DNA of 15,087 bases from positions 1 to 15,087 of IMG/VR virus record IMGVR_UViG_2698536392_000024; one strand, written 5' to 3'. How positions within the stretch are numbered: the stretch's first letter is position 1; each line of letters starts with the position of its first letter. Source of the stretch: a virus. Taxonomy: Duplodnaviria > Heunggongvirae > Uroviricota > Caudoviricetes. Shown piece by piece: positions 7,663 to 7,699 of this stretch. The notes under the pieces are model-generated. The model had not been told where the DNA came from. It searched no databases and saw nothing but the letters and a program-made list of their open reading frames with translations. Made by a program: the position numbers and the translations under genes.

Positions 7663-7699
7663 AAAAAAAGTCCTGGGGTTAAGTAAGGAACTCCAGGAC
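7663..7699 (-). promoter_or_regulatory. 5' leader hairpin plus U7 directly upstream of the capsid start codon
   Basis: Minus-strand RNA GUCCUGGAGUU / AACCCCAGGAC (10 of 11 paired, 8-nt loop) then UUUUUUU then AUG; the only Shine-Dalgarno-like AGGA lies in the 3' arm. Confidence 0.45.

Follow-up and report, generated by a model that had tools for sequence, protein, structure and literature searches.

In the trp and pyrBI leaders, and equally in the RAT (ribonucleic antiterminator)-terminator leaders of bgl and sac, the 5' arm of a terminator has an alternative partner upstream, and the choice between the two is made during transcription. Here we describe a similar arrangement in a 15,087-nt stretch of DNA (IMG/VR record IMGVR_UViG_2698536392_000024, called the window throughout), where a terminator-like hairpin, named F, and a U7 tract stand directly ahead of the start codon of a major capsid gene on the minus strand, and where the 5' arm of F has a second, perfectly complementary partner in D, the first hairpin of the same leader RNA. 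Judged by its gene order, the window is a phage satellite of E. coli of the capsid-forming phage-inducible chromosomal island (cf-PICI) type, whose prototype is EcCIEDL933, also known as CP-933C (bioRxiv 10.1101/2022.09.08.507074). We favour, with modest confidence, the reading that F and its U7 tract are the OFF arm of a two-state cis-acting leader RNA, which would work as a terminator/antiterminator attenuator and would also gate translation. Compared with the classical attenuators, however, the window has neither a conserved leader peptide nor an identified RNA-binding antiterminator protein, its U-run touches the start codon, and the segment competing for the terminator arm is part of the 5'-most hairpin, separated from that arm by about 113 nt that include a long spacer hairpin named E.

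Other described systems share parts of this design. In riboswitch expression platforms one hairpin serves, as F would here, both as the terminator and as the sequestor of the Shine-Dalgarno (SD) sequence, coupling transcription to translation; in contrast to riboswitches, the window leader has no conserved aptamer-like domain and no Rfam match, and a small-molecule ligand is unlikely because from relative to relative the apical part of E is completely different. In phage MS2, the 5' untranslated region of the maturation gene folds kinetically, with the start site occluded at equilibrium and open transiently on the nascent RNA, and in phage Mu the translation of mom is activated by Com, a factor that remodels an occluding hairpin. 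Both of these differ from the window in being translation-only systems, without a terminator U-run and with unrelated sequences. The put-type antiterminator RNA of HK022 consists of two adjacent stem-loops acting in cis on RNA polymerase, and D and E of the window are also adjacent. The layout of promoter, short untranslated leader and intrinsic terminator is also that of lambda PR'-tR' with Q and of P. aeruginosa PalpB-tB with AlpA (PMC7969949, PMC9371919), but these systems load a protein on RNA polymerase at a DNA site of the promoter, whereas the window RNA offers an alternative helix.

The class of mechanism is well known, and neither this leader RNA family nor the control of cf-PICI capsid expression appears in the papers searched, which contain nothing on how the capsid operon of a cf-PICI is turned on. 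These satellites build capsids of their own, take only tails from phages and move between species. If the proposed reading is true, it defines for the first time a point at which the production of satellite capsids is controlled, may help explain the formation of tail-less capsids without helper induction, and adds an unannotated cis-regulatory RNA family present in more than 10 enterobacterial genera; moreover, the switch is testable in the established EcCIEDL933 system.

Hairpin F, its U7 tract and the capsid start codon

The capsid ATG (7662-7660) is the first start of a 385-aa open reading frame (ORF; 6505-7662, minus strand), annotated in RefSeq as a phage major capsid protein, belonging to the HK97 family (PF05065) and being the first gene of the packaging operon. 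On the same strand, hairpin F (7699-7670) is made of a 5' arm at 7699-7689 (GUCCUGGAGUU / GTCCTGGAGTT), an 8-nt loop at 7688-7681 (CCTTACTT) and a 3' arm at 7680-7670 (AACCCCAGGAC), followed by U7 (7669-7663) and then, with no gap, by the AUG. The arms are paired at 10 of their 11 positions, giving a 7-bp basal part with five G-C pairs, one A.C mismatch and then 3 bp. RNAfold predicts -14.1 kcal/mol with an ensemble fraction of 0.71 and z = -2.96, and 2 of 200 dinucleotide shuffles equal this hairpin. The stem is GC-rich and within the range of about 5-14 bp of intrinsic terminators, the loop is at the upper limit of the short loops that these have, and the U-run, expected 0-2 nt past the stem, begins directly at the last stem base. 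A sequence-only reading of this DNA had described the hairpin, the U7, the abutting AUG and a single SD-like AGGA within the 3' arm, all of which are confirmed by sequence and RNAfold, and it is from these features that we infer transcript release at this site. Its remark that this is an unusual place for a terminator is true of a free-standing one, whereas for the expression platform of an attenuator the place is normal.

The AGGA (7674-7671) is the sole SD-like element within 25 nt of the capsid start, the AUG standing 8 nt past it, and its position inside the 3' arm of F is that found in SD-sequestering operators, in which the SD, the start codon or both are paired in a local hairpin. This SD is weak, with -4.0 kcal/mol against the anti-SD versus -9.9 for the portal gene and -9.7 for the HNH gene.

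A terminator scan allowing no mismatch did not list the F site because of the A.C mismatch. In a second scan, covering the whole window for hairpins of -10 kcal/mol or lower that abut a run of at least six T, four sites including F were found, against a mean of 0.74 (maximum 3) in 100 dinucleotide shuffles, and three of the four lie on the minus strand between 7663 and 8302.

Among seven E. coli and Shigella island variants (93-100% identical overall), F is identical and the only difference is a T-run of T7 or T8. The one O157:H7-type copy that was read, FORC_044, has the same hairpin followed by U8, and from it the O157:H7-type copies of EcCIEDL933 appear to share F. When metagenome contigs were scanned with degenerate codons, 19 loci were obtained, including L103 and L107, in which the stem of F is kept while its 3' arm varies. 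In L107, AACCCCAGGAC is changed to AACUUCAGGAC, which converts the A.C mismatch into an A-U pair and one G-C pair into G.U (-16.0 kcal/mol, z = -4.8), and U7 follows. In L103, whose leader is about 80% identical to that of the window with a very different E-F interval, the hairpin reads GUCCUGGUG...CAUCAGGAC plus U8, with AACCCCAGGAC changed to GCAUCAGGAC (-15.4 kcal/mol, z = -4.25). In both loci the strand corresponding to 7701-7693, which has two possible partners, is unchanged, as is the segment of D that faces it.

Two partners for one strand of the leader

F is the final element of a structured leader of about 170 nt, downstream of a conserved promoter-like module. Hairpin D (GUGGUGCCAGGACGCUGGGGCCAU; 7829-7806, minus strand) comes first and is followed by the long hairpin E (UUUUCCCGCCUG.UAAU...AUUA.CAGGCGGGAAAG; 7805-7752), which brings D and F near each other, and by a small predicted hairpin between E and F (AAUCGGUGCGUUUACUGAUU; 7750-7731). 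Within D, the segment CCAGGACGC (7823-7815), formed by the 5' strand and the GACG loop, is the perfect complement of GCGUCCUGG (7701-7693), which consists of the two bases ahead of F plus the first seven of its 5' arm and is invariant in the window-type variants, including L103. This last strand can pair with either the 3' arm of F or the D segment. The nine contiguous Watson-Crick pairs of the D:F5' helix exceed the uninterrupted stem of F itself, and at -19.8 kcal/mol this is the best duplex of the F 5' arm with the whole upstream leader, reached by none of 300 shuffles (mean -12.2).

As would be expected for the alternative helix of an attenuator, D:F5' is part of the minimum free energy (MFE) structure of transcripts ending ahead of the 3' arm of F. 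In growing transcripts with 5' ends at 7835-7828, the MFE structure contains this helix (ON) when the 3' end is at 7694-7682, being 5.6-6.5 kcal/mol better than with D closed, and when the 3' end is at 7663 or beyond the MFE structure is the D hairpin plus F (OFF), favoured by 4.5-5.5 kcal/mol. Folding the growing transcripts of two other leaders, L003 and L071, gave the same ON-then-OFF order, and in L103 the ON and OFF folds are nearly equal in energy.

We compared 80 loci encoding relatives of the capsid protein (63-98% identity) in Enterobacterales, plus E. coli variants, and the same leader layout was found in relatives from more than 10 enterobacterial genera. An invariant TGTAAAT motif lies directly past the upstream gene and is followed by direct repeats in a phase of about 10 bp, in most genera by a covarying hairpin with a U-run (t1), and then, about 70 nt past TGTAAAT, by a block named C, which has a -10-like hexamer in one register (TATCTT or TATATT, and TATTCT in the window), with D starting 5 nt later. 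Where D is present, it lies 87-89 nt from TGTAAAT in almost every case, the one outlier being at 104 nt. In the relatives, t1 would play the role of the terminators that close the upstream genes of the window. On the minus strand of the window, TGTAAAT lies at 7917-7911, three TTGTTC direct repeats in 10-bp phase, a putative protein-binding array, lie at 7907-7880, and block C (CATGATTATTCTCG) lies at 7846-7833 with its hexamer at 7840-7835. Block C is a putative promoter of the packaging operon, with a start predicted near 7829-7827, and no -35 element is visible near it, which would fit an activator-dependent promoter.

Class 1 has 26 distinct leaders from many genera, composed of D, a long E, a C-rich linker and an F that ends 4-6 nt ahead of the ATG, with an SD-like GGA in its 3' arm and no U-run. 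The D/E/F fold of this class is 89.4% paired, versus 36-46% with the partners slid, and 24 of its pairs have changes on both sides, with none of 500 shuffles reaching the observed value; in the E helix, 10 of the 12 pairs show compensatory changes. The alternative helix is also present in class 1, where AGACGUGAGCC of D pairs with GG.UUUCACGUCU of F, with 98.3% of cells paired over the 26 leaders versus 15-52% when slid. More specifically, two class-1 leaders carry a three-way compensatory change, in which D column 24 goes from U to G, column 19, also in D, from A to C, and column 126, a bulge inside F, from A to C. The GACG of the D loop and the CGUC of F are invariant or nearly so throughout class 1 and occur in the window type too, as expected for a nucleation site. 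In class 2 (L042 and L050), the 5' arm of a CUGCAUG...CAUGCAG hairpin finds its partner in a segment that occupies the place of D; among 300 shuffles, 2 equal this pairing for L042 and 1 does so for L050. The alternative helix is thus conserved, with some covariation, over three sequence classes, the support within each class being mostly invariance. This recurrence across classes, together with the invariant two-partner strand facing a variable 3' arm, is in our view what argues most strongly for a switch. We do not rely on an effect of the transcript's 5' end on the choice between ON and OFF: in the window, 5' ends at 7870-7828 favour ON and those at 7960-7900 disfavour it, and class 1 shows only a mild trend.

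D and E of the window type stand at the same places as in class 1. R1, a covariance model of the class-1 D-E-F built from the 26 sequences, scored 14.8 bits over window positions 7838-7720 when 441 nt were searched with filters off (E = 5.5e-5), with its D and E parts aligned and its F part unaligned; with default filters, R1 had no match in the window. From this alignment, D and E of the window appear homologous to those of class 1, and F would be a lineage-specific version of the final hairpin, the sole type with a U-run at that position. Rfam 15 gave no match at E <= 1 in window positions 7650-7960 or in the leaders of 11 relatives. In a phage genome collection the window leader was unmatched, and the class-1 leader was found only in satellite-like records.

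Some other leaders deserve mention. The class-2 leaders L042 (about 2431-2466) and L050 (about 2413-2457), both on the plus strand, have a hairpin plus U7 inside the leader just ahead of the final hairpin, and therefore terminator-like elements recur at different positions across the leader classes. In L073, from Symbiopectobacterium, a D-like hairpin (GTGGCACTCAGACGTGAT..GTCAC, within 1644-1770, plus strand) with 17.7 bits to R1 lies about 730 nt upstream of the capsid gene, next to which stands a leader of another type. Finally, in a related E. coli cf-PICI (L088, 11220-11750, minus strand, equal to L087, 709-1239), a ProQ/FinO-family RNA chaperone is encoded two genes upstream of a structured capsid leader.

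A proposed switch and its competitors

The two-state attenuator proposed here is drawn from computed structures, complementarity, conservation and predicted energies, and its termination in vivo, its start at block C and its trigger are read from these. In the OFF state, D would close on itself and F would form, giving an intrinsic terminator that ends 1 nt before the capsid AUG, with the U7 as its U-tract and the weak AGGA buried. In the ON state, the D segment would capture the two-partner strand, and with it the seven bases that begin the 5' arm of F, so that F would be blocked; RNA polymerase would then pass the U-run, and ahead of the AUG the U-rich stretch would be single-stranded along with the SD and the 3' arm of F. 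The ON helix could form once the 5' arm of F has been made, probably nucleated by the D loop GACG on CGUC, and OFF would become more stable only after the 3' arm has been made, so that the decision would be kinetic and could be biased by a factor holding D closed or open. On this model, a change in D such as CCAGGACGC to CCAGCUGGC would be expected to give more termination.

The sequence-only reading had offered an attenuator in need of antitermination or a translational gate, and both ideas fit; its call for an antiterminator is not borne out as regards a protein encoded by helper or island, for which no evidence was found, the leader holding its own segment in D. That capsid expression is kept off until helper induction is too strong a claim, given that tail-less cf-PICI capsids, including those of EcCIEDL933, have been reported at significant levels without helper induction (bioRxiv 10.1101/2025.02.11.637232). 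Much more tentatively, the cf-PICI capsid leader may be a new and self-contained family of RNA switches with a GACG-CGUC toehold, in which a factor from the island, the helper or the host, or else the 5' end of the transcript, would set the number of satellite capsids, and whose terminated product of 165 nt, with a hairpin and U7 at its 3' end, could also have a function in trans, as a small RNA of the Hfq or ProQ type.

Several points weigh against the two-state attenuator, of which the weakest aspects are that no sensor was found and that it relies on energy predictions. All the evidence is computational, and the papers searched mention no promoter or terminator at the capsid leader. The window leader is predicted to be 99.7% OFF at equilibrium, and therefore the model needs kinetics or a factor; besides, nearest-neighbour differences of about 5 kcal/mol in RNAs of 170 nt lie near the error of the method. 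The class-1 ON helix is kept mostly by invariance, with one compensatory event in two sequences. Given that the class-1 F hairpins have no U-run, termination at F would be confined to leaders of the window type, and F may originally have acted on translation alone. As to a sensor, the ORFs of the leader and the loop of E are unconserved, and neither an aptamer-like core nor an RNA-binding regulator was identified. The inverted repeats could in principle be DNA sites and not RNA helices.

Of the competing explanations, the one that survives best, though we hold it to be unlikely, is that RNA polymerase largely ignores F and that the element acts on translation or mRNA stability only: F would gate the weak SD, D:F would be an anti-sequestor and not an antiterminator, the U7 would be a standby or enhancer site for ribosomal protein S1, and D would protect the 5' end of the mRNA. 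The 26 class-1 leaders, with a hairpin at the same position and a GGA in its 3' arm in spite of having no U-run, make translation control the shared feature, and the weakness of the capsid SD, as well as a loop and an A.C mismatch that are not ideal for a terminator, point the same way. What this explanation does not account for is the perfect U7 or U8 directly past a GC-rich 7-bp basal stem in all variants, including L103, which by sequence rules is a strong terminator; and, being the same switch with a different output, it overlaps the two-state attenuator and does not exclude it.

A similarly small, slightly lower probability goes to a plain leaky terminator or insulator, with F/U7 as one in a series (8302-8279, 7948-7926 and 7699-7663) that damps read-through from the early and replication genes, partial read-through setting the capsid level and the D:F complementarity having no function. 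Three terminator-like sites do stand in series within 650 nt of the minus strand, the leader is predicted to take the F fold at equilibrium, and terminator-like hairpins are found elsewhere in the other classes (t1, upstream of block C, in classes 1 and 3; the internal hairpin plus U7 in class 2). However, the series leaves unexplained the 9-bp D:F complementarity that no shuffle reached, its recurrence in three sequence classes with a three-way compensatory change, the invariance of the F 5' arm and the D segment versus the varying 3' arm, and the placing of an insulator after, not before, the conserved promoter-like block.

Very unlikely is a protein-mediated processive antitermination, in which a helper-phage Q-type or an island protein would modify RNA polymerase at the promoter-like module and take it past F and the terminator-like hairpin that the terminator scan found directly past the capsid stop codon (6495-6474, minus strand). 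In its favour stand the resemblance of promoter-like block, short leader and terminator to lambda PR'-tR' and P. aeruginosa PalpB-tB (PMC7969949), the further site past the capsid gene and the fact that these islands have lambdoid helpers. Against it, no Q-like protein is encoded by the island, though a helper may supply one, and no -10-like pause element or Q-binding-site analogue was found; packaging of KpCIDSM30104, a related cf-PICI, takes place in a non-lysogenic strain, and helper induction is reported not to be needed for EcCIEDL933 capsids to form. The AlpA of the island was considered as a Q-like antiterminator and rejected: it has 70 aa, belongs to PF05930, has 8c3t as its sole sequence match in PDB, and has no sequence match to P. 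aeruginosa AlpA, an antiterminator of at least 142 residues with a Q21-like fold (PMC7969949, PMC9371919). On this comparison of sequences, the shared name is a coincidence.

The island around the leader

In E. coli 90-3040, an island lying in the chromosome between clpS and cspD matches the window with 100% identity, and the capsid region of the window (6400-8400) was matched in 740 of 5426 complete E. coli genomes. All the annotated genes are on the minus strand except one small YlcI/YnfO-family gene on the plus strand, and the gene order includes int, alpA, a C4/isrK RNA region, an icd-like gene, DUF4222, primase, SSB, PerC and a phrog_1957 gene. The packaging module is opened by the capsid gene, followed in order by protease, portal, head closure, connector, HNH, TerS (the small terminase) and TerL (the large one), and 296 nt of non-coding DNA (7663-7958) lie ahead of the capsid gene. 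In RefSeq, the primase (9532-11348) and large terminase (1322-2982, minus strand) of the window copy are frameshifted, and this copy of the island may be defective; relatives with intact primase and terminase genes have the same leader as the window. A literature search for 5'-end or small-RNA data on this island found none.

Upstream of the leader, a near-identical 30-nt copy of the TTGTTC array is found at the far end of the island (232-203, minus strand), just beyond the edge of the window related copies adjoin int (about 16700-16830 in L001), and a second island (L088), whose Int is 74% and AlpA 59% identical, has TTGTTC copies at both of its ends and in the int-alpA spacer. Distributed in this manner, the repeats look like sites typical of an integrase arm-binding domain or of a recombination directionality factor, reused ahead of the packaging operon, and they suggest a regulated promoter ahead of the capsid leader. 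At the att-proximal ends of two different islands, the TTGTTC arrays adjoin GGTGTAGTTAAT x2 repeats. The conserved upstream module was also considered as a cos site, which is unlikely: vB_KppS-Ant, a packaged satellite, has a linear record whose ends fall between the small gene past HNH and terS and not at the capsid leader.

The two terminator-like sites upstream of the leader are duplicates of each other. The first, found in the terminator and T-run scans, is an intrinsic-terminator-like hairpin with a T7 run directly past the PerC-family gene (8302-8279, minus strand), and the second (7948-7926), a similar hairpin with a T-run, closes the upstream phrog_1957 gene (7959-8183). Both lie in a 27-nt direct repeat (93% identical, 7927-7953 and 8281-8307) that flanks a 354-bp phrog_1957 segment; the islands ECA64 and RM10809 are without this segment and have PerC directly ahead of the leader, and it looks like a cassette insertion. 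The phrog_1957 protein was rejected as a regulator, having no Pfam domain and its gene being missing from some islands with an identical leader; its AlphaFold model is poor, with a predicted local distance difference test score of 58.8, and was not used.

Two other candidate mechanisms were set aside. Block C (GAUUAUUCUCG, 7843-7833) has an 11-nt perfect match with capsid codons 2-5 (CGAGAAUAAUC, 7656-7646, minus strand), a pairing that could silence read-through transcripts; 11 of 100 shuffles reach its duplex energy, which makes it not significant on that measure, and it is uncompensated in L103. In the short leaders of the Xenorhabdus type, UUUUUCAUGGUGUU is complementary to ACACCAUGAAAAA at the start codon. 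Attenuation by a leader peptide was rejected too: in near-identical islands, indels of 1 and 4 nt put a 44-aa ORF (7711-7845) out of frame, L103 has neither the ATG of this ORF nor an MKKR mini-ORF (7725-7711), and the class-1 short ORF that starts in block C is without an ATG in several members.

Elsewhere in the island, Rfam matches above the gathering score lie at 12204-12401 on the minus strand, with a C4 antisense RNA at 12204-12291 (72.6 bits) and isrK at 12313-12388 (69 bits), along with a weaker c4-a1b1 target match at 12350-12401, all three just upstream of the icd-like gene. On the strength of these matches, the region is an RNA immunity module of the P1/P7/P4 type within a PICI. Downstream of the primase gene, GGTGAACAGTT iterons occur on both strands at 9304-9530 and are probably the replication origin; GGTGAACA, which is related to them, is found within leader hairpin E (7780-7787, plus strand).

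Between the last gene of the island (1027-1308) and clpS, where RefSeq has no annotated gene, there are about 2.5 tandem copies of a 132-nt unit at about 750-1010 on the minus strand. Each unit contains the palindrome AGCGCAATTTTGCGCT, three or four ATGWTTAC direct repeats and a CCCCCATTGGGGG hairpin, an arrangement that matches the repeat-plus-hairpin block of the class-1 capsid leaders. At the other end, the int-alpA spacer has three AATATC repeats in 10-bp phase (13770-13799, minus strand), with a fourth copy near 13735, and these may be a binding array at the alpA promoter.

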